The notes beneath the pieces are model-generated. The model was not told the origin of the DNA, ran no database searches, and worked only from the letters and a program-made list of their open reading frames with translations. The position numbers were made by a program, and so were the translations under genes. A DNA stretch of 64,000 nt, from assembly GCA_049296775.1 (NCBI GenBank), contig JBAQTB010000001.1:357284-421283 (forward strand). The letters are read 5' to 3'. Numbering within the stretch: position 1 is the stretch's first letter; every line of letters begins with the position of its first letter. The DNA comes from Patescibacteria group bacterium. GTDB taxonomy: Bacteria > Patescibacteriota > Patescibacteriia > UBA9934. Positions 7,568 through 55,262 of the stretch are shown here, one piece after another.

Positions 7568-7644
7568 TGGTGCGAGCTGAGGGACTTGAACCCCCGACCC
7601 CTTGGTTCGAAGCCAAGTGCTCTATCCAGCTGAGCTAAGCCCGC
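7568..7644 (-). tRNA. tRNA-Arg (anticodon TCG)
   Basis: Reverse strand folds as a cloverleaf: acceptor GCGGGCT/AGCTCGC, D-arm GCTC-AGCTGGATA-GAGC, anticodon loop CTTCGAA, T-loop TTCAAGT, encoded CCA. Confidence 0.85.
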
Positions 7645-7721
7645 AGAAAACCTATCCAAGTTCGCCGGCTACAGGTGTATCCGACGCACGTAATAGGTTT
7701 TTTACTCATTAAATTATGCTT

Positions 7722-7765
7722 AGTCTACGCTAAATCTTGACCCAAGTCAAAGATTGAGGCATACT
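7722..7765. promoter_or_regulatory. back-to-back divergent sigma70-like promoters sharing a palindromic -35 region (TTGACccaaGTCAA)
   Basis: Plus strand: TTGACC (7737..7742), 17-nt spacer, CATACT (7760..7765), reading toward the candidate ncRNA and tRNA-Lys. Minus strand: TTGACT (7750..7745), 17-nt spacer, TAGACT (7727..7722), reading toward tRNA-Arg. Confidence 0.45.
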
Positions 7766-7789
7766 GTTGGCGTTGGCGTTTGGTGGCGA

Positions 7790-7906
7790 GGGGCAGTAAA
7801 ATGCTTCAGCTGCGAGGCGCGGGGGATTGAGACTGAGGCGTATGTGGCTATACGGTGAAGTCGAGATGGGGCCCCGCAACAAGGCAGATGGACATTTTAC
7901 TGCCCC
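7790..7906 (+). ncRNA. candidate ~117-nt structured small RNA; identity unresolved (SRP/4.5S-like RNA is one possibility)
   Basis: Perfect 14-bp terminal helix GGGGCAGTAAAATG (7790..7803) / CATTTTACTGCCCC (7893..7906) enclosing ~90 nt with internal hairpins (CGUAU-GUGGCU-AUACG; GCGGGG...CCCCGC). Lies 15-25 nt downstream of a promoter and 8 nt upstream of tRNA-Lys. No protein-coding signal. Shares the decamer AAGGCAGATG with E. coli 4.5S RNA, but the helix-8 GGAA/AGCAGCC motif was not found. Strand not proven. Confidence 0.3.
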
Positions 7907-7914
7907 GAGATTAC

Positions 7915-7989
7915 GCATCGGTAGCTCAGCGGTAGAGCAGTTGACTCTTAATCAATTGGTCGTGGGTTCGAATCCCGCCCGGTGCACCA
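7915..7989 (+). tRNA. tRNA-Lys (anticodon CTT)
   Basis: Cloverleaf: acceptor GCATCGG/CCGGTGC, D-arm GCTC-AGCGGTA-GAGC, anticodon loop CTCTTAA, T-arm GTGGG-TTCGAAT-CCCGC, encoded CCA. Confidence 0.85.
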
Positions 7990-8308: not shown

Positions 8309-9580
8309 ATGCGCTATTCTAAACTTTTTTCAAAATCTTCCAAAACTCGCCCAGCAGATGCTGAGTCGGTTAACGCTCATTACCTGATTCAGGGGAGTTT
8401 TGTGCATCAAGAAATGGCCGGGGTATATACCTGGTTGCCGCTTGGTTTACGTGTTTTGCGTAAGGTCGAAGAGATTATTCGTGAGGAGATGGATGCGATT
8501 GGCGGCCAAGAAACACGCATGCCGTCTTTGCAATCCAAGGAAGCTTGGCTCAAGACTGGTCGCTGGGATACTACAGATATTTTGTTTAAAATCCCTAGCC
8601 AGACAGATAAAGAATACGCCTTAGGGCCATCACATGAGGAGGTTGCGACTCCGTTAGTGCAGGATTATCTGATCTCTTACAAGGATTTACCGTTGTCTGT
8701 GTACCAGATTGCGACCAAGTTTAGAGATGAATTGCGGGCTAAGAGTGGCGTGATGCGCGGGCGCGAGTTCGGCATGAAAGATATGTATTCATTTCATGCT
8801 ACCCAGGATGACCTGGATCAATATTACGCTCAGGTACAGCAAGCTTATCTGAAGATCTTTGCTCGTTGTGGGGTAGATGTAAAAGTAACTTTGGCCTCTG
8901 GTGGAATTTTCTCTAAAAAGCATTCGCACGAGTTCCAAATTATCACTCCAGCCGGTGAGGATCTATTGATTGCGTGTTCTAAGTGTACGTTTGCGGAGAA
9001 TACGGAGGTAGCTACCAAACAGGCGGGGGAGGCTTGTCCAAGCTGTGGGACTGAATTGATAGAAACCAAAGGTGTGGAAGCTGCGAATATTTTTGATCTT
9101 GGTACGCGCTACACGGATGCCTTTGGTTTTAAAGTCACGGATGAAAATGGGGAGCATCTGCCAGTGTTGATGGGTTGTTATGGTATTGGCACTACGCGTT
9201 TAGTGGGTGCGATCGTGGAAGCGTCACATGACGATAAGGGGATTATTTGGCCTAAGAACGTGGCGCCGTTTGCTATACATATCGTCGTGTTGGGGTCTAA
9301 AGACGAAGCTGTCCAGGCTACCACGAATGCAGCCGCCGAGAAGTTGTACGCTGACTTGAGGGCGGCCGGCATTGAGGTGTTGATCGACGATCGCGCTGGC
9401 TTATCTGCCGGCGAGAAGTTTGCTAATGCTGATCTCTTGGGTCTGCCGATTAGAGTGGTCGTGAGTGAGAAGTCTTTGAAGGGTGAAGCCTTTGAGGTTA
9501 AATTACGCGCCGGTGGTGAGCCAATCATGGTGCCGGTGGCTGAAGGCGTGGCTCAGTTGATTGAGCTAGCGCAAGCCTAA
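8309..9580 (+). CDS. proS: proline--tRNA ligase (short form lacking INS editing domain)
   Basis: Class II aaRS motifs and ProRS-specific YTWLPLGLRVLRKVEEIIREEM. 423 aa with an anticodon-binding C-terminal domain. No INS insertion and no archaeal-type C-terminal Zn domain. Confidence 0.88.
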   Translation: MRYSKLFSKSSKTRPADAESVNAHYLIQGSFVHQEMAGVYTWLPLGLRVLRKVEEIIREEMDAIGGQETRMPSLQSKEAWLKTGRWDTTDILFKIPSQTDKEYALGPSHEEVATPLVQDYLISYKDLPLSVYQIATKFRDELRAKSGVMRGREFGMKDMYSFHATQDDLDQYYAQVQQAYLKIFARCGVDVKVTLASGGIFSKKHSHEFQIITPAGEDLLIACSKCTFAENTEVATKQAGEACPSCGTELIETKGVEAANIFDLGTRYTDAFGFKVTDENGEHLPVLMGCYGIGTTRLVGAIVEASHDDKGIIWPKNVAPFAIHIVVLGSKDEAVQATTNAAAEKLYADLRAAGIEVLIDDRAGLSAGEKFANADLLGLPIRVVVSEKSLKGEAFEVKLRAGGEPIMVPVAEGVAQLIELAQA

Positions 9581-21182: not shown

Positions 21183-23525
21183 ATGTCCTACGATCATAAG
21201 CGTATTGATGCTAAGTGGCAGCAGCGTTGGGATGAGGCTAAGATTTTTGAGGCCCAGGATGGCTCCAAGAAAGACAAATACTACGTGCTCGTAGAGTTTC
21301 CGTATCCGTCTGGCGCTGGTCTTCACGTTGGACACCCGCGTAGCTATACCGCTCTTGATATTGTGGCGCGGAAGAAGCGCATGGAGGGCAAGAATGTATT
21401 GTTCCCTATGGGCTGGGATGCCTTTGGTTTGCCGGCGGAGAATTACGCTATCAAGACTGGTGTACATCCAAGTGTAGTGACTCGTGAAAATATCGACAAC
21501 TTCCGCCGCCAGCTGAAGGCGATCGGTTTTAGTTTTGATTGGTCACGTGAGGTGAATACGACCGATCCCAAGTATTACCGCTGGACGCAGTGGATGTTTA
21601 ATCAATTCTTTAAGGCGGGGCTGGCCTATAAAGCAAAAGCTACAATTAACTGGTGTCCAAAAGACAAAACTGGCTTGGCGAATGAGGAAGTGGTGGGGGG
21701 AGCATGTGAACGCTGTGGCACGCCGGTTGAAAAACGTGAGAAAGAACAGTGGATGATTGCGATCACCAAATACGCCGATCGTTTACTGGAGGATCTGAAC
21801 ACGGTCGACTATTTGCCAAAAATCAAAAAGCAACAAGAAGATTGGATCGGTAAAAGCGAAGGCGCCGAGATCGATTTTTCACTGCGCCTTCCCCCCTTGG
21901 ATAAGGGGGGAGCAAGGGGGGTCGTCTCTACGACTTGCCTAACCGCCTTCACCACCCGCCCTGACACCATTTTCGGTGTGACTTACATTGTTCTTGCTCC
22001 GGAACATCCTTGGGTTAAGCTCGCGACCGATGATCAGCATGATGTTCTCGAGAATAAAGAGGAAGTAAGGGCTTATCTTGAGAGCGTAAAATCTCGCACC
22101 GAGATTGATCGTACCAATGACGACAAAGAAAAGACGGGTGTCGAGCTGAAGGGCGTGAAGGCTATCAACCCAGCTACGGGCGAAGAGATCCCGATGTGGG
22201 TGGCGGATTATGTTTTGCCTAATTATGGCACCGGTGTCGTCATGGCCGTCCCGGCGCATGATGAGCGTGATCGAGCGTTCGCTGAGAAATACGCTTTGCC
22301 GATTGTCGATGAACCGCTAGTTAGTTTTGATGAAGGTATTGAAAAATCCAAAGGTCGAAAGAAGACAAATTATCGCCTCCGTGATTGGGTATTTTCTCGT
22401 CAGCGGTATTGGGGTGAGCCGATTCCGTTAGTTCATTGTGAGAAAGACGGGTGGGTAGCTGTGCCGGACGAGCAGTTGCCAGTTGAGCTTCCGAAGGTCG
22501 AGAAGTATGAGCCCACTGACAGCGGCGAATCTCCACTTGCGAGTATCGAAAGTTTTGTAAATACGACCTGTCCAACTTGTGGTGGGCCGGCGAAGCGAGA
22601 GACGGATACGATGCCAAACTGGGCTGGGTCGAGTTGGTATTTCCTCCGCTATATTGATCCAAGCAACGATACGGAGTTCGCATCGAAGAAAGCGCTAAAG
22701 TACTGGACGCCGGTTGATCTTTACAACGGTGGGATGGAACATACGACACTCCACTTGTTGTACTCGCGTTTCTGGAACAAGTTTTTGTTCGATCAAGGCT
22801 TGGTGCCAACGAGTGAGCCTTACATGCGCCGGCACAGTCACGGTTTGATTATGTCCGAGGACGGCACGAAGATGTCTAAGTCCAAGGGGAACGTGGTGAA
22901 TCCGGATGAAGTTGTGGCTGAGTACGGAGCTGATGCTTTCCGGGCGTATATTTTGTTCATGGGGCCATTTGAAGAGCACGTGCCGTGGTCCACTAATGGT
23001 TTGGTGGGCGTGCGTAGATTCTTGGACAAGGTTGAACGCTTGGCGGATAAGTTGGGTGACGAAACGCCGGAGGTGACCAAGGCACTGCACAAAACAATTC
23101 AAAAAGTTAGCAGTGACATTGAGAGTTTCCGTTTCAATACGGCCGTGAGCGAACTCATGAAGTTTGTTAATTTGGTGCAAGAGACAAAGTCGTTGTCGGC
23201 TGAAAGCTTTAAAGTGTTTTTGACACTTTTGTCCCCATTTGCTCCACACTTAGCGAATGAGTTGTGGGAACAGTTGGGTATGACGGGGCTAGTTGAAGAA
23301 CAGTCTTGGCCAGTGGCGGATGAGAAGTTTTTGGTAGACGATAAAATTACCATCGTGGTTCAGGTGAACGGCAAGCTCCGGGCTAGTTTAGAAGTCTCGC
23401 CTGAGATTAGTGATGAAGATTTGTTGCAGTTAGCCAAGGCAGATGAGAATGTACAGAAGTTTTTGGTGGGGGAGATTAAGAAGGAGATCGTGGTGAAGGG
23501 TAAGCTGGTCAATTTCGTAGTGTAA
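21183..23525 (+). CDS. leuS: leucine--tRNA ligase
   Basis: HVGH class I motif, KMSKS (KMSKSKGN), CP1 editing region (TTRPDTIFGVTYIVLAPEHP), 780 aa. Contains the in-frame repeat copy at 21883..21924. Confidence 0.95.
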   Translation: MSYDHKRIDAKWQQRWDEAKIFEAQDGSKKDKYYVLVEFPYPSGAGLHVGHPRSYTALDIVARKKRMEGKNVLFPMGWDAFGLPAENYAIKTGVHPSVVTRENIDNFRRQLKAIGFSFDWSREVNTTDPKYYRWTQWMFNQFFKAGLAYKAKATINWCPKDKTGLANEEVVGGACERCGTPVEKREKEQWMIAITKYADRLLEDLNTVDYLPKIKKQQEDWIGKSEGAEIDFSLRLPPLDKGGARGVVSTTCLTAFTTRPDTIFGVTYIVLAPEHPWVKLATDDQHDVLENKEEVRAYLESVKSRTEIDRTNDDKEKTGVELKGVKAINPATGEEIPMWVADYVLPNYGTGVVMAVPAHDERDRAFAEKYALPIVDEPLVSFDEGIEKSKGRKKTNYRLRDWVFSRQRYWGEPIPLVHCEKDGWVAVPDEQLPVELPKVEKYEPTDSGESPLASIESFVNTTCPTCGGPAKRETDTMPNWAGSSWYFLRYIDPSNDTEFASKKALKYWTPVDLYNGGMEHTTLHLLYSRFWNKFLFDQGLVPTSEPYMRRHSHGLIMSEDGTKMSKSKGNVVNPDEVVAEYGADAFRAYILFMGPFEEHVPWSTNGLVGVRRFLDKVERLADKLGDETPEVTKALHKTIQKVSSDIESFRFNTAVSELMKFVNLVQETKSLSAESFKVFLTLLSPFAPHLANELWEQLGMTGLVEEQSWPVADEKFLVDDKITIVVQVNGKLRASLEVSPEISDEDLLQLAKADENVQKFLVGEIKKEIVVKGKLVNFVV
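21883..21924. repeat. copy A of the short palindromic C5-TTGATAA-G5 repeat (inside leuS, in-frame)
   Basis: ctgcgccttccccccttggataaggggggagcaaggggggtc. About 85% identical over ~45 nt to 26436..26484 and clearly related to 30169..30200. Confidence 0.6.
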
Positions 23526-48805: not shown

Positions 48806-49594
48806 TTGTACAATATGTGGTCGACGATAAAAACTGAGGCCCTGGTGATTTCTAGCGAGCCTTGGAAAGAGGCAGATCGCCGGTATCGGGCGCTGACTCC
48901 GGCGCACGGTAAGCTCGAATTTGTGGGGCGCGGCGCCATGAAGGGCAAAGCTAAGCTAGCTGCACATCTGGAGCCGTTTGCGGTGGTGAAGCTTGAGATC
49001 ATCAAGGGCAGAAGCTCTACGACGGTGATTGGAGTGGAACGCTTGGAAGCTTTTAAGACATTAGCGACGGTCATTGAGTCACGGTTGTTGGCGCTGGCGG
49101 CGGTGGCATTAATTGATAAAACCGTCCGGCCAGATCTGGAAGATCAATTTTTGTATTCAGAAGCTTTGGAGCTGTTGCGTTTTTTAGATACGGCGCCGGC
49201 TTTTGCGCCCACTAGAAATACGTTGGTACTCGGGGGTTTTTTGCTTCGTTTATTGCGACATCTCGGATACGACGTTGAGCTGGGTACTTGTTTGGCGTGT
49301 AAAGATGATATTCGTCCTTTGGCGTTTAGGTGGCACGAGGGCAGGGGAGGTTTGGTGTGTACAAATTGTGTCCTGGAGCAGCCACAAGAATGGTTCGCGG
49401 CCAGGGCCTTGGATGAAGAGATCGTGACCTTGCTACGTTTTGCTAGGGACGCCCGTTATTTGGACTTACTCAAGCCGTCATTACGAGCTGATCATGTGGG
49501 AATGTTCGCGACTTGCGTGCATGATTTACTGCGCTTTCACGTGCCGGGCTATGTGGATGAGACGCCTTTTTGGTACACTACGACGGTGACTTAG
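48806..49594 (+). CDS. recO: DNA repair protein RecO
   Basis: N-terminal OB-fold (EALVISSEPWKEADRRYRALTP), C-terminal zinc finger CLAC...CTNC. Confidence 0.8.
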   Translation: MYNMWSTIKTEALVISSEPWKEADRRYRALTPAHGKLEFVGRGAMKGKAKLAAHLEPFAVVKLEIIKGRSSTTVIGVERLEAFKTLATVIESRLLALAAVALIDKTVRPDLEDQFLYSEALELLRFLDTAPAFAPTRNTLVLGGFLLRLLRHLGYDVELGTCLACKDDIRPLAFRWHEGRGGLVCTNCVLEQPQEWFAARALDEEIVTLLRFARDARYLDLLKPSLRADHVGMFATCVHDLLRFHVPGYVDETPFWYTTTVT

Positions 49595-49600
49595 GCTGGC

Positions 49601-49628
49601 TTGACAAACTAAGCCGTTGCGCTATGGT
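49601..49628 (+). promoter_or_regulatory. promoter of the aspS T-box leader
   Basis: TTGACA, 16 nt, TATGGT. Confidence 0.5.
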
Positions 49629-49800
49629 TTGAGGGTAGAAACAGGCGGTTGACGCCCGCTTGCGAGTGAAGTTAAACCAAGAGAACAAAGTAAGGTGGCA
49701 CCGCGGTTTATCTCAAGCATATGCTAGAGAAGAAATTCGCCCTTACACGCATGATTCAGGTTGAATTGTGCTGTGAGGGCGAATTTTTAAGTTAAAATTT
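49629..49800 (+). promoter_or_regulatory. T-box riboswitch leader (Asp-specific) with intrinsic terminator
   Basis: T-box sequence AAGTAAGGTGGCACCGCGG at 49688..49706 (consensus AATTAGGGTGGTACCGCGG). The UGGC bulge fits the GCCA 3' end of tRNA-Asp (discriminator G). GAC is present in an upstream loop (ggttGACgcc). Terminator aaattcgccctta...tgagggcgaattttt at 49733..49798. aspS lies immediately downstream. Confidence 0.65.
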
Positions 49801-49818
49801 AGTAATCTTTAAGTAAGT

Positions 49819-51228
49819 ATGTCCAGATTATTGACCTCTGAAATCGTGTCTAAGGTAGGGGAGACGGTGACGGTAGCGGGGTGGATTCATGCCCGCCGAG
49901 ATATGGGTAAGGTGGCTTTTTTCGATTTGCGTGATCGTGAAGGGTTGTTGCAGATCGTGGCTGTACCAAGCGAGCTTGGTGACTCTGCTGAGATTTCAAA
50001 TAAGCTGCGTTCAGAGTGGGTGGTCGAGATTGAAGGAGTGGTTCAGGCCCGGGGAGCGAAGCAGATTAATGATAAGTTGAAGACGGGCACGGTTGAATTG
50101 TTGGCTAAGTCGATTAAAGTCTTGAACGAGTCTAAGACGCCGCCGTTTGAGATCGATAAAGATACTCGTCCGGTGAATGAGGAGGCTAGATTGACGTATA
50201 GATATTTGGATTTGCGCAGTGAGCGTATGCAGGCTAACTTGCGCGTGCGTAGCGCCATGTTCCAGGATATGCGTCAGTACCTGAGCAAGGATGGCTTTAT
50301 TGAAGTAGAAACTCCGGTTTTAACTAAGGGCACTCCGGAGGGGGCGCGTGAATTTATTGTGCCTTCCCGTTTGCATGCACAAAACTTTTACGTGTTACCG
50401 CAGTCTCCGCAGCAATTTAAGCAATTGCTGATGGTGTCAGGTGTGGAGCGTTATTACCAATTTGCTAAGTGTTTTAGGGATGAAGATCAGCGTGGTGACA
50501 GACAGCCAGAGTTCACTCAACTTGATCTTGAGATGAGTTTTGTGGAGCGTGAGGAGGTTATGAGTTTGATTGAGGGTATGTTGCTTGAGATGGTTAGAAA
50601 GTATAAGCCAGAGGCTAAATTGGGCCAGGTGCCTTTTCCGCGCATGGCGTACAAGGAGGCGATGGAGAAGTATGGTACGGATAGACCGGATATTCGTGCA
50701 GATAAGACTGATCCAAATGAAATGGCTTTCTTGTGGGTGGTTGATTTTCCATTTTTTGAGAAGACAACTGACGCTGCAGGTTCGGGGCAGGGTGGTTGGA
50801 CCTTTACCCACAATCCGTTCTCAGCAGCTTTGCCAGAATGGCGCGATAAATTGATGAAGAAAGAGGAGATTGGGGAGATTATTACCAGTCAGTACGATAT
50901 TGTGCTGAATGGTTTTGAGATTGGTGGCGGATCGATTAGAAATCACCGCCCTGAAGCTTTGCGTACAGTCTTTGAGATTATGGGCTTTACGACTGAACAG
51001 ATCGATGAACAATTCGGGCATATGCTTCAGGCCTTTGAATTTGGTGCTCCGCCGCACGGGGGTATTGCCCTAGGCATTGACCGAGTGTTGGCCCTGTTCC
51101 AGGGGGAGGCGAACATTCGTGAGGTGATGGCGTTCCCTAAGGATGGCAATGCACGTGATCACATGATGGGAGCACCTTCTCCACTGCCGGATAAGGCGTT
51201 AAAAGAGGCGAATATTAAGTTGGCCTAA
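49819..51228 (+). CDS. aspS: aspartate--tRNA ligase, bacterial-type but lacking the GAD insertion domain
   Basis: N-terminal OB anticodon-binding domain. Motif 2 FRDEDQRGDRQPEFTQLDLEMSF (bacterial type), motif 3 GGGSIRNHRPE. Only ~12 aa where E. coli AspRS has the ~130-aa GAD domain; 469 aa. Confidence 0.9.
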   Translation: MSRLLTSEIVSKVGETVTVAGWIHARRDMGKVAFFDLRDREGLLQIVAVPSELGDSAEISNKLRSEWVVEIEGVVQARGAKQINDKLKTGTVELLAKSIKVLNESKTPPFEIDKDTRPVNEEARLTYRYLDLRSERMQANLRVRSAMFQDMRQYLSKDGFIEVETPVLTKGTPEGAREFIVPSRLHAQNFYVLPQSPQQFKQLLMVSGVERYYQFAKCFRDEDQRGDRQPEFTQLDLEMSFVEREEVMSLIEGMLLEMVRKYKPEAKLGQVPFPRMAYKEAMEKYGTDRPDIRADKTDPNEMAFLWVVDFPFFEKTTDAAGSGQGGWTFTHNPFSAALPEWRDKLMKKEEIGEIITSQYDIVLNGFEIGGGSIRNHRPEALRTVFEIMGFTTEQIDEQFGHMLQAFEFGAPPHGGIALGIDRVLALFQGEANIREVMAFPKDGNARDHMMGAPSPLPDKALKEANIKLA

Positions 51229-54662: not shown

Positions 54663-54738
54663 GGCTGGGTAGCTCAGTTGGTAGAGCGCAGGACTCATAA
54701 GCCTGTTGTCGCGGGTTCGATCCCCGCCCCAGCCACCA
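54663..54738 (+). tRNA. tRNA-Met (anticodon CAT; elongator, or possibly Ile-lysidine type)
   Basis: Cloverleaf: acceptor GGCTGGG/CCCAGCC fully paired, anticodon loop CTCATAA, T-arm GCGGG-TTCGATC-CCCGC, encoded CCA. Confidence 0.85.
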
Positions 54739-54998
54739 TAAAAACACTTTATTTGGTCGATTTTGGCCTCACGGAGCCTCTATTTTTCTTCACCGTAGGG
54801 TTGCCTACGCCTCAGAAAAATTTTCTCCGTTCAACCAAACTCGCCACAAATAAAGTGTTTTTTTGATTGTGAAAATCTTAGCTTGTGAGGTACCCGGAAG
54901 ATTATCGGCATTTTCATTATGCTTTTAAAGCTTGACCGGAAGTCGAAAAACGTGTATTCTTTGGCCAGGAAATGAAAACCTATTAAGTTTTTAAACGC

Positions 54999-55075
54999 CG
55001 CGGGGTAGAGCAGTCAGGCAGCTCGTCGGGCTCATAACCCGAAGGTCGTCGGTTCAAATCCGACCCCCGCAACCA
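54999..55075 (+). tRNA. initiator tRNA-fMet (anticodon CAT)
   Basis: C1:A72 mismatch at the acceptor end, three consecutive G:C pairs in the anticodon stem (TCGGG/CCCGA), anticodon loop CTCATAA, encoded CCA. Confidence 0.85.
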
Positions 55076-55077
55076 AA

Positions 55078-55107
55078 AAATCTTACCGTTTCGGTGAGAT
55101 TTTTTTG
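55078..55107 (+). terminator. terminator after tRNA-fMet
   Basis: atcttaccg-tttc-ggtgagat followed by TTTTTTT. Confidence 0.6.
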
Positions 55108-55176
55108 TCCAAGGAGGTGGTTTGTTGTGGGATTGCCAGGATAGAAAGAATTTGATACATTATTGGCCGTCAATGA

Positions 55177-55262
55177 GCCATGGTGGCGGAATGGTATACG
55201 CGACGGACTCAAAATCCGTTTCTCGCAAGGGATTGAGGGTTCGAGTCCCTCCCATGGTACCA
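55177..55262 (+). tRNA. tRNA-Leu (anticodon CAA), long variable arm
   Basis: Acceptor GCCATGG/CCATGGT, anticodon loop CTCAAAA, 15-nt variable arm, T-arm GAGGG-TTCGAGT-CCCTC, encoded CCA. Confidence 0.85.

Follow-up and report, generated by a model that had tools for sequence, protein, structure and literature searches.

A probable T-box leader of reduced architecture upstream of aspS in a Patescibacteria genome

We describe the intergenic region between recO and aspS in a 64,000-nucleotide (nt) stretch of DNA from a Patescibacteria group bacterium (hereafter the window, whose first letter is position 1). This region carries a leader that is probably a T-box riboswitch of reduced architecture, which would respond to uncharged tRNA-Asp and control aspS through attenuation of transcription. 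A preliminary description of the window had already claimed an Asp-specific T-box controlling aspS; comparative evidence from related genomes supports this assignment, but the element is not canonical in that it has no long Stem I, kink-turn (K-turn), Stem II, IIA/B pseudoknot or Stem III.

Anatomy and predicted folds of the leader

All elements are on the + strand and stand in the order expected of a T-box between the recO stop and the aspS start. The upstream gene recO (48806..49594, Pfam RecO_N and RecO_C) ends 6 nt before the -35 box of a sigma-70-like promoter (-35 TTGACA at 49601-49606, 16-nt spacer, -10 TATGGT at 49623-49628) that matches the consensus at 10 of 12 positions; promoter-like sites number 2 in 700 nt, compared with 0.5 +/- 0.8 in shuffled sequences. 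Transcription would start in the G run at about 49634-49636. The specifier hairpin, a reduced Stem I, follows at 49642..49662 (stem 49642-49648 with 49656-49662, 7 bp including one G-U; -10.0 kcal/mol), and its 7-nt apical loop UUGACGC (49649-49655) holds the Asp codon GAC (49651-49653), which matches aspS and is followed by a purine (G49654). Next comes a purine-rich linker of 28 nt (49663..49690, 76% purines), which has a minimum free energy of 0.0 when folded alone, and whose 3' part AAGAG-AAC-AAAG (49679-49690) corresponds to the purine flanks RRRxG...AA around Stem III, except that 3 nt take the place of the stem itself.

The T-box sequence AAGUAAGGUGGCACCGCGG occupies 49688-49706. The 5' half of the antiterminator (49691..49705) consists of A1 UAAGG (49691-49695), the bulge UGGCACC (49696-49702), whose UGGC at 49696-49699 is complementary to the 3' GCCA of the tRNA, and A2 GCG (49703-49705); the 3' half (49738..49745) consists of A2 CGC (49738-49740) and A1 CCUUA (49741-49745), and also belongs to the 5' arm of the terminator. 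The antiterminator UAAGG-UGGCACC-GCG...CGC-CCUUA therefore spans 49691-49745, and the apical part of helix A2 (49706..49737) includes an insert of about 27 nt folding as a stem that extends A2. The intrinsic terminator (49732..49788) has a hairpin at 49732-49787 (-35.0 kcal/mol) with a G+C-rich core at 49736-49783 and a loop at 49759-49761, and its U-run UUUUU (49784-49788) ends 30 nt 5' of the aspS ATG. A simple terminator scan of the region made no call at 49732-49788, because the stem exceeds the limits of that scan. The promoter, the UGGC bulge, the GAC-containing upstream loop and the terminator with its U-run had each been named in the preliminary description, and all of them were found at these positions; the codon, however, lies in the apical loop of a short hairpin and not at the canonical specifier-loop position of Stem I where that description had expected it.

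In the whole window there is exactly one copy of the 12-mer GGTGGNACCGCG. When two mismatches were allowed, 10 matches were found against 13.3 expected, which is the chance level, and therefore only the exact match carries weight.

In folding predictions, the whole leader is far more stable than its shuffled counterparts (z = -6.5), and the terminator conformer of the full leader reaches -62.7 kcal/mol, compared with -40.2 kcal/mol when the antiterminator is enforced. The terminator is thus the more stable of two mutually exclusive structures, and uses the 3' strands of both A1 and A2. When the antiterminator was isolated and folded without constraint, A1, the 7-nt bulge and the extended A2 were obtained (-13.7 kcal/mol), and the nascent transcript up to 49761 also takes the antiterminator fold. 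These predicted energetics are usual for a T-box.

Comparison with related leaders

The core AGGTGGCACCGCG was found upstream of orthologous aspS genes in the contigs that we designate L001-L005, L007-L009, L016, L052, L174, L175 and L178. Ten leaders are of the short type described above, i.e., that of the window and nine from Patescibacteria/Uhrbacteria-like metagenome-assembled genomes (MAGs; L002, L003, L005, L007, L008, L009, L016, L052 and L175), in which the leader likewise precedes the orthologous aspS and the aspartyl-tRNA synthetase (AspRS) is 72-91% identical to that of the window. The short-type leaders align cleanly from the predicted start to the terminator, and a covariance model built from the nine relatives, with the window excluded, recovered the window leader end to end (49634-49747, 49.3 bits, E = 2.6e-9), while its next-best match in the window scored 8.5 bits. 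The leader is also 100% identical, insert included, in a separately assembled contig (L185). Judged from the match to the covariance model, the combination of elements is not a product of chance.

When RNAalifold was applied unguided to the short-type alignment, it returned exactly the specifier hairpin and the A1/bulge/A2 structure, and no structure in the 5' lead or the linker. With the named structure 90.3% of cells are paired, versus 29-59% when the partners are slid. Compensatory changes were observed at three of the six specifier-stem pairs in the short-type set, and the outer A1 pair changes from U-A to C-G in four relatives; across 18 leaders, the specifier stem takes such different forms as GGCGG/CCGCU, GUGCGG/CCGCAU, CGCGG/CCGCG, CGCGA/UCGCG, CCCG/CGGG and GCUG/CAGC. 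The terminator was found in all nine short-type leaders that were folded (-19.5 to -35 kcal/mol).

Sequence conservation is distributed very unevenly along these leaders. The mean pairwise column identity is 0.85 in the apical loop, 0.85 in the purine string and 1.0 in the bulge, compared with 0.46 in the variable linker and 0.52 in the 5' lead; the loop TGAC and the bulge UGGCACC are invariant in all ten, and the spacing from GAC to UGGC is 38-44 nt across the relatives. Conservation is concentrated at the parts expected to contact the tRNA, and this pattern indicates that selection is acting there. The position of the promoter is also maintained, the -35 box lying 48-50 nt 5' of the specifier TGAC in eight of nine tabulated short-type leaders, and with this promoter position only about 8-12 nt of RNA would precede the specifier hairpin.

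The insert in helix A2 (within 49706-49737) is present in this genome only among the ten short-type leaders, and its relatives have a loop of 4-6 nt, usually GAAA, at this place. The distance from the terminator to the gene is also variable: 130-270 nt separate the T-box terminator from aspS in L003, L008, L009 and L052, with a conserved stretch shared there by L008 and L052, and in L007 (1790-2500) about 800 nt with two small open reading frames (ORFs) lie between them. The core is absent upstream of AspRS relatives at 73% identity or less, and also in the closer L006 and L177.

The loop reads as a codon across two kinds of synthetase gene. The loop Y-U-GAC-R was found upstream of aspS in 15 leaders and a variant, CUGACU, in the metagenome leader L096, so that GAC precedes aspS in 16 leaders in all; in L072 (reverse strand), a long-type leader with loop C-U-GUC-A and bulge UGGU, GUC precedes valS, which encodes a short valine--tRNA ligase (NCBIfam valS, 697 bits on the truncated protein). 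Since GAC and GUC are each other's anticodons and GAC stands with aspS and GUC with valS, only the codon reading of the loop fits both genes. As to the source of L072, its valine--tRNA ligase shares 98% identity with a protein of a MAG that carries the label Chloroflexi, and Patescibacteria follow among the named relatives at 65% or less. A third specifier was found in the long-type leader of L011 (2258-2445), where a loop C-C-AAC-A (Asn) and a bulge UGGU precede an AspRS-like gene with 59% identity to that of the window; this enzyme may be a non-discriminating AspRS regulated by tRNA-Asn.

The discriminator base of tRNA-Asp is generally G73, and one bacterial tRNA-Asp (L042) ends in G-CCA and has the anticodon loop CUGUCAC; the UGGC of the window fits this G73. 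The U on the 5' side of the codon and the purine on its 3' side would be complementary to A37 and U33, respectively, of a standard tRNA-Asp loop, and up to five contiguous loop-loop pairs could form. Two similar leaders with the bulge UGGC were also noticed in L156 (reverse strand) and L113; the gene downstream of the former has an N-terminus that resembles, by eye, anthranilate synthase component I, and its small hairpin loop has C-UGG-A, whose codon register may differ from the Y-U-NNN-R rule.

A pattern scan of metagenomes with AAGNAAGGTGGNACCGCG gave at least 120 stretches, most of which are canonical T-boxes with a long leader. The matches listed include no new short-type leader: outside the sequences used to train it, the model R1 scored at most 44 bits. 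L105 (about 2349-2429) and L086 (about 2013-2109) show a G+C-rich hairpin and a U-run directly before the T-box core and no recognisable Stem I in the 110 nt shown, and may be tandem or unusual leaders.

Missing modules, Rfam scoring and known T-boxes

Five leaders (L001, L004, L174, L178 and L011) are of a long type, and the metagenome aspS leader L096 is of the same build. The AspRSs of the first four are 83-90% identical to that of the window. These long-type leaders have the same hairpin, flanked by the K-turn signature UGA...GAGC, and then Stem II with S-turn motifs, IIA/B with the F-box CCCGUUA, and a stable Stem III (-10 to -17 kcal/mol) ending 3-4 nt before A1. In the window, by inspection, there are no tandem G.A/A.G flanks of a K-turn around 49642-49662; Stem II, the S-turn and the IIA/B pseudoknot are absent from this and the other short-type leaders; and in place of a long Stem I, with its internal specifier loop and the distal platform formed by AG bulge and distal loop, there is a 7-bp terminal hairpin. 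The Stem III helix is also absent, no consensus pairs being found in the linker, although its flanks AAGAG...AAAG are retained. The sequence at this position is AAAAG-UAC-AAAG in the short type, AAGAG-AAC-AAAG in the window and AAGAG-G[Stem III]C-GAAG in L001, and the comparison with L001 therefore shows that the RRRxG-Stem III-AA purine flanks described in PMC7583486 have been kept and the helix between them is gone. Hand-drawn helices, namely UAGUU/AACUG of L008, GGUUU/AAACC of the window and small hairpins within the linkers of L002, L005, L007 and L009, are not conserved across the relatives, and the minimum free energies of the linkers lie near 0; for example, the linker hairpin of L002 (-5.7 kcal/mol) is absent in its sister L003.

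Intermediate forms were found between these two types. In L062 (reverse strand, about 230 nt upstream of aspS), the K-turn, the apical-loop GAC, Stem II and IIA/B are present without Stem III, and the junction before A1 is AAGUACAAAG as in the short type. By inspection, L007 and L009 keep the K-turn and a compensatory C-stem (GGC/GCC versus AGAU/GUCU) and have neither Stem II nor Stem III, and only the 5' half of the K-turn, AUUGA, remains in L002 and L003. A rough neighbour-joining tree of AspRS mixes long with short leaders and has the long-type L011 at its base, which points to derivation of the short form from a long leader by deletion, in one event or several.

Detection by Rfam proved to be a poor guide to such leaders. 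A scan of the window at the Rfam gathering thresholds returned tRNAs only and no T-box, and RF00230 had no match on the whole window at E<=0.5. On a 501-nt slice (49400-49900) under permissive settings, RF00230 gave 14.2 bits (E = 0.76) amid microRNA noise, compared with a gathering score of 93; in this alignment the 91 Stem I positions are collapsed to 4 nt (87 deleted), and the antiterminator aligns well to positions 183-216 (AAGUAAGGUGGCACCGCG...CGCCCUUA). The scores of other leaders follow their modules: the long-type L004, L001 and L011 gave 63.2, 57.7 and 51.2 bits on the full model with only distal Stem I deleted, L062 without Stem III gave 28.4 bits, and the short-type L005, L002, L016 and L008 gave 22-26 bits on positions 183-216 only (164-216 in L002), i.e., on the antiterminator. 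The low score of the window leader is attributable to the missing modules and not to a lack of homology. Because the canonical controls L033 (Clostridiales aspS) and L054 reached only 85.9 and 78.8 bits, both below 93, the gathering score alone is too strict as a criterion, and we rejected Rfam detection as an arbiter. The preliminary description had proposed an RF00230 scan as a check and had taken the lack of a significant hit as disproof of the T-box, a test that would wrongly reject the present leader.

Among characterised systems, the closest in the decoding part are the actinobacterial ileS T-boxes (class II; M. tuberculosis and N. farcinica; Sherwood et al. 2015 as cited in PMC7583486). 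According to the account of them in PMC7583486, these also have a short Stem I without the elbow-binding distal platform, an apical-loop specifier followed by a purine, and a UGGN bulge that pairs with the tRNA 3' end; unlike the window leader, the ileS leaders keep the K-turn, Stem II with S-turn, IIA/B and Stem III, reported there as required for binding, and act on translation through a Shine-Dalgarno (SD) sequestrator, whereas the window has a terminator. No anti-SD pairing was found in the window leader. Within the scope of that account, the long-type L001, L004, L174 and L178 match the ileS decoding-domain architecture but with a terminator, and the long-type leaders thus combine a class II-like decoding domain with a terminator. 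An apical-loop specifier in a short Stem I is itself a known arrangement (PMC7583486).

Bacillus subtilis glyQS, the simplest characterised class I T-box, resembles the window in the competition between antiterminator and terminator, in having no Stem II or IIA/B, and in the single-stranded linker that joins the decoding part to the discriminator; it differs from the window in possessing Stem III as well as a long Stem I that includes a K-turn, an internal specifier loop and, distally, an interdigitated T-loop platform stacking on the tRNA elbow. The RF00230 consensus (e.g., tyrS) shares with the window the T-box sequence/antiterminator and the subsequent terminator, and differs in Stem I, Stem II, IIA/B and Stem III, whose positions are deleted or forced in the window, and in the base of A2, which is G.U in the consensus versus G-C in the window. 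With respect to the insert of about 27 nt, Stem Sa of the staphylococcal glyS T-box is likewise a lineage-specific stem at an equivalent place in helix A2, but its sequence is unrelated, and it is conserved across staphylococci whereas the insert occurs in one genome of 10; Stem Sa affects tRNA isoacceptor choice and antibiotic binding (PMC9177973).

TBDB distinguishes class I, transcriptional with a long Stem I, and class II, translational with a truncated Stem I and found by scanning Actinobacteria, and it discarded sequences shorter than 100 nt (PMC7778990). For the short-type architecture, i.e., an apical-loop specifier and a terminator without K-turn, Stem II, IIA/B and Stem III, we found no counterpart in the literature. 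A full-text search found no paper linking a T-box with Patescibacteria, Parcubacteria or the candidate phyla radiation (CPR), most subscription journals being outside the corpus searched.

The regulated gene aspS (49819..51228, + strand) encodes a 469-amino-acid (aa) bacterial-type aspartate--tRNA ligase without the GAD insertion domain, in agreement with the minimal aspS of the preliminary description. The product matches the NCBIfam aspartate--tRNA ligase in two stretches (634 bits) and has only the Pfam domains tRNA_anti-codon and tRNA-synt_2, i.e., the OB fold and the class II core. An identical protein is encoded in an NCBI MAG that bears the label Patescibacteria group bacterium, and the relatives of the enzyme belong to Patescibacteria/Candidatus Uhrbacteria; the earlier suggestion that the T-box would place the organism among Firmicutes-like phyla does not agree with this. 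In the relatives, the ribosomal protein operon, secY, adk, map, ruvX, recO, the leader, aspS, scpA and scpB occur in synteny.

The window contains two other synthetase genes, proS (8309-9580, 423 aa) and leuS (21183-23525, 780 aa), each of which matches its NCBIfam model in two stretches and is shorter than the model, and trimmed synthetases appear to be a general trait of this genome rather than specific to aspS. Neither gene has a T-box leader according to the 12-mer search and the model scans of the window, and aspS is, as had been noted before, the only synthetase gene of the window with such a leader. As for tRNA genes, a cluster at 54663-55262 includes two tRNA-Met (CAU) and one tRNA-Leu (CAA), and tRNA-Arg (UCG) and tRNA-Lys (CUU) are located at 7568-7989, the tRNA-Lys directly upstream of proS.

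Possible mechanism, rival explanations and meaning

The regulation might proceed as follows. Transcription would start about 8 nt upstream of the hairpin, whose 7-nt loop U-U-GAC-G-C would offer the Asp codon to the anticodon GUC, and the 28-nt purine-rich, unstructured linker would lead from the hairpin to the antiterminator, where UGGC of the bulge would pair with the uncharged 3' end G73-C-C-A. With both contacts formed, the weak antiterminator would be stabilised until RNA polymerase has passed, and aspS would be transcribed; with tRNA-Asp charged or absent, the terminator would capture the 3' strands of A1 and A2, and transcription would stop at the U-run. We infer from the conserved elements that the leader binds tRNA, and that two short pairings and the purine string might suffice without K-turn, Stem II, IIA/B and Stem III: the two weak contacts would reinforce each other through the linker, which would serve as a spacer of sufficient length to reach from the anticodon of the tRNA to its acceptor end, and the purine string that remains may still lie along the minor groove of the NCCA/UGGN helix. 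The stronger form of this view, that the short leader is a self-sufficient minimal T-box relying only on the contact of its anticodon-loop-like hairpin loop with the tRNA anticodon loop and on the UGGC/GCCA contact, joined by a purine strand of fixed length, and doing without the elbow platform, K-turn, Stem II, IIA/B and Stem III, each of which present structural work regards as necessary in some setting, is tentative, and we put it at somewhat less than an even chance. Such an RNA would be about 110 nt long, and about 85 nt in the relatives without the A2 insert.

Several points weigh against a functional T-box of this kind. According to published biochemistry, Stem II and the K-turn are required when Stem I is truncated, and there is no appreciable tRNA binding by an antiterminator that lacks Stem III (both PMC7583486); a further paper describes the discriminator domain as highly similar from one T-box to another (PMC12647780). 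At the base of A2, the Watson-Crick pair G49703-C49740 stands where a G.U wobble would act as the primary steric sensor of the aminoacyl group (PMC7583486). This G-C pair is common to all Patescibacteria leaders here and was also found in 31 of 117 classified T-box matches among the metagenome matches listed, and is therefore not unusual. No tRNA-Asp gene was found in the window or in any Patescibacteria locus examined. The inner A1 pairs and the A2 pairs are invariant and so give no covariation evidence either way, the sample of 10 sequences is small and closely related (effective number about 1.6-1.7), and the 5' boundary of the leader depends on a predicted promoter.

The rival that survives best, although it is unlikely, is a decaying relic that has lost tRNA sensing and acts before aspS as a constitutive, leaky terminator/attenuator with a residual T-box sequence. 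The literature calls the missing parts required for tRNA binding (PMC7583486, PMC12647780), the loss of the leader in the aforementioned AspRS relatives at 73% identity or less and in L006 and L177 indicates that the element is dispensable in the lineage, and RF00230 recognises the antiterminator alone. The short form has nevertheless persisted in 10 genomes over the AspRS identity range given above, with loop and bulge invariant while the linker drifts, with compensatory substitutions of the specifier stem inside the short-type set, and with the codon-to-bulge spacing kept within a few nucleotides; a relic would not retain a hairpin whose sole known role is codon presentation.

A protein-assisted remnant, in which a Patescibacteria-specific RNA-binding protein replaces the lost modules or AspRS itself binds the hairpin as an operator, is slightly less likely again. 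A protein could make up for the functions lost with the RNA modules, and the hairpin, with its stem of 5-7 bp and loop of 7 nt, is sized like an anticodon stem-loop. However, what the loop shows is the codon, GAC with Asp and GUC with Val, and it is therefore complementary to the tRNA, whereas an operator recognised by AspRS would be expected to mimic it; the genes next to the leader, recO and scpA/scpB, offer no candidate protein.

A canonical class I T-box that starts further upstream and holds GAC in the internal specifier loop of a long Stem I is very improbable. The T-box sequence and the terminator are canonical, and the aforementioned helix GGUUU/AAACC (49627-49631 with 49675-49679) can be drawn around the hairpin by inspection; however, its GGUUU strand overlaps the -10 box, recO extends to 49594 and the conserved promoter takes up 49601-49628, RF00230 deletes 87 of the 91 Stem I positions at 14.2 bits, no AG bulge, distal loop or K-turn was found in the window, and RNAalifold gives no enclosing helix, the hairpin being clearly terminal in the relatives.

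That the T-box-like 12-mer is coincidental (a single 12-mer in 128 kb has a probability of about 0.03) or that the loop TTGACG (49649-49654), which matches TTGACA at 5 of 6 positions, is the -35 box of a second promoter can practically be dismissed, since no -10 element lies 16-18 nt 3' of the loop, the likeness to a -35 box is lost in the loops for Val (CUGUCA) and Asn (CCAACA), where the codon rule still holds, the stem covaries, the leave-one-out E value is 2.6e-9 and the orthologous position is conserved in at least 10 genomes; we judge the likeness to a -35 hexamer to be coincidental. Leader-peptide attenuation was also considered and rejected: there is no + strand ORF of 40 aa or more in the leader, and a GTG-initiated frame of 33 codons from 49667, noticed by eye, has one Asp codon and is broken by linker indels in the relatives.

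A T-box of reduced architecture accordingly remains the preferred reading, and it touches on a question of minimal requirement. In the current picture, the anticodon contact is reinforced either by the elbow platform of Stem I or by the K-turn, Stem II and IIA/B, and the 3'-end contact needs Stem III and the purine string; a review of 2020 counts among the open questions whether the K-turn is dispensable for the function of any T-box (PMC7583486). The aspS leaders constitute a natural deletion series at one orthologous locus, from the full short-Stem-I form (L001, L004, L174 and L178) through the form without Stem III (L062) and the forms without Stem II and Stem III but with a K-turn (L007 and L009) to the window, which has none of these, and the tRNA-contacting nucleotides are conserved throughout, so that the question of the minimal requirement becomes directly testable. 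Rfam-based annotation misses reduced T-boxes, and tRNA-sensing leaders in small-genome bacteria are therefore probably underestimated. If the short form is inactive, it would clearly exemplify how a riboswitch decays in a streamlined genome; if the reading as a minimal T-box is true, it would redefine the minimum needed for an mRNA to decode a tRNA and sense its charge, and would provide the smallest natural T-box, in the phylum Patescibacteria/CPR.

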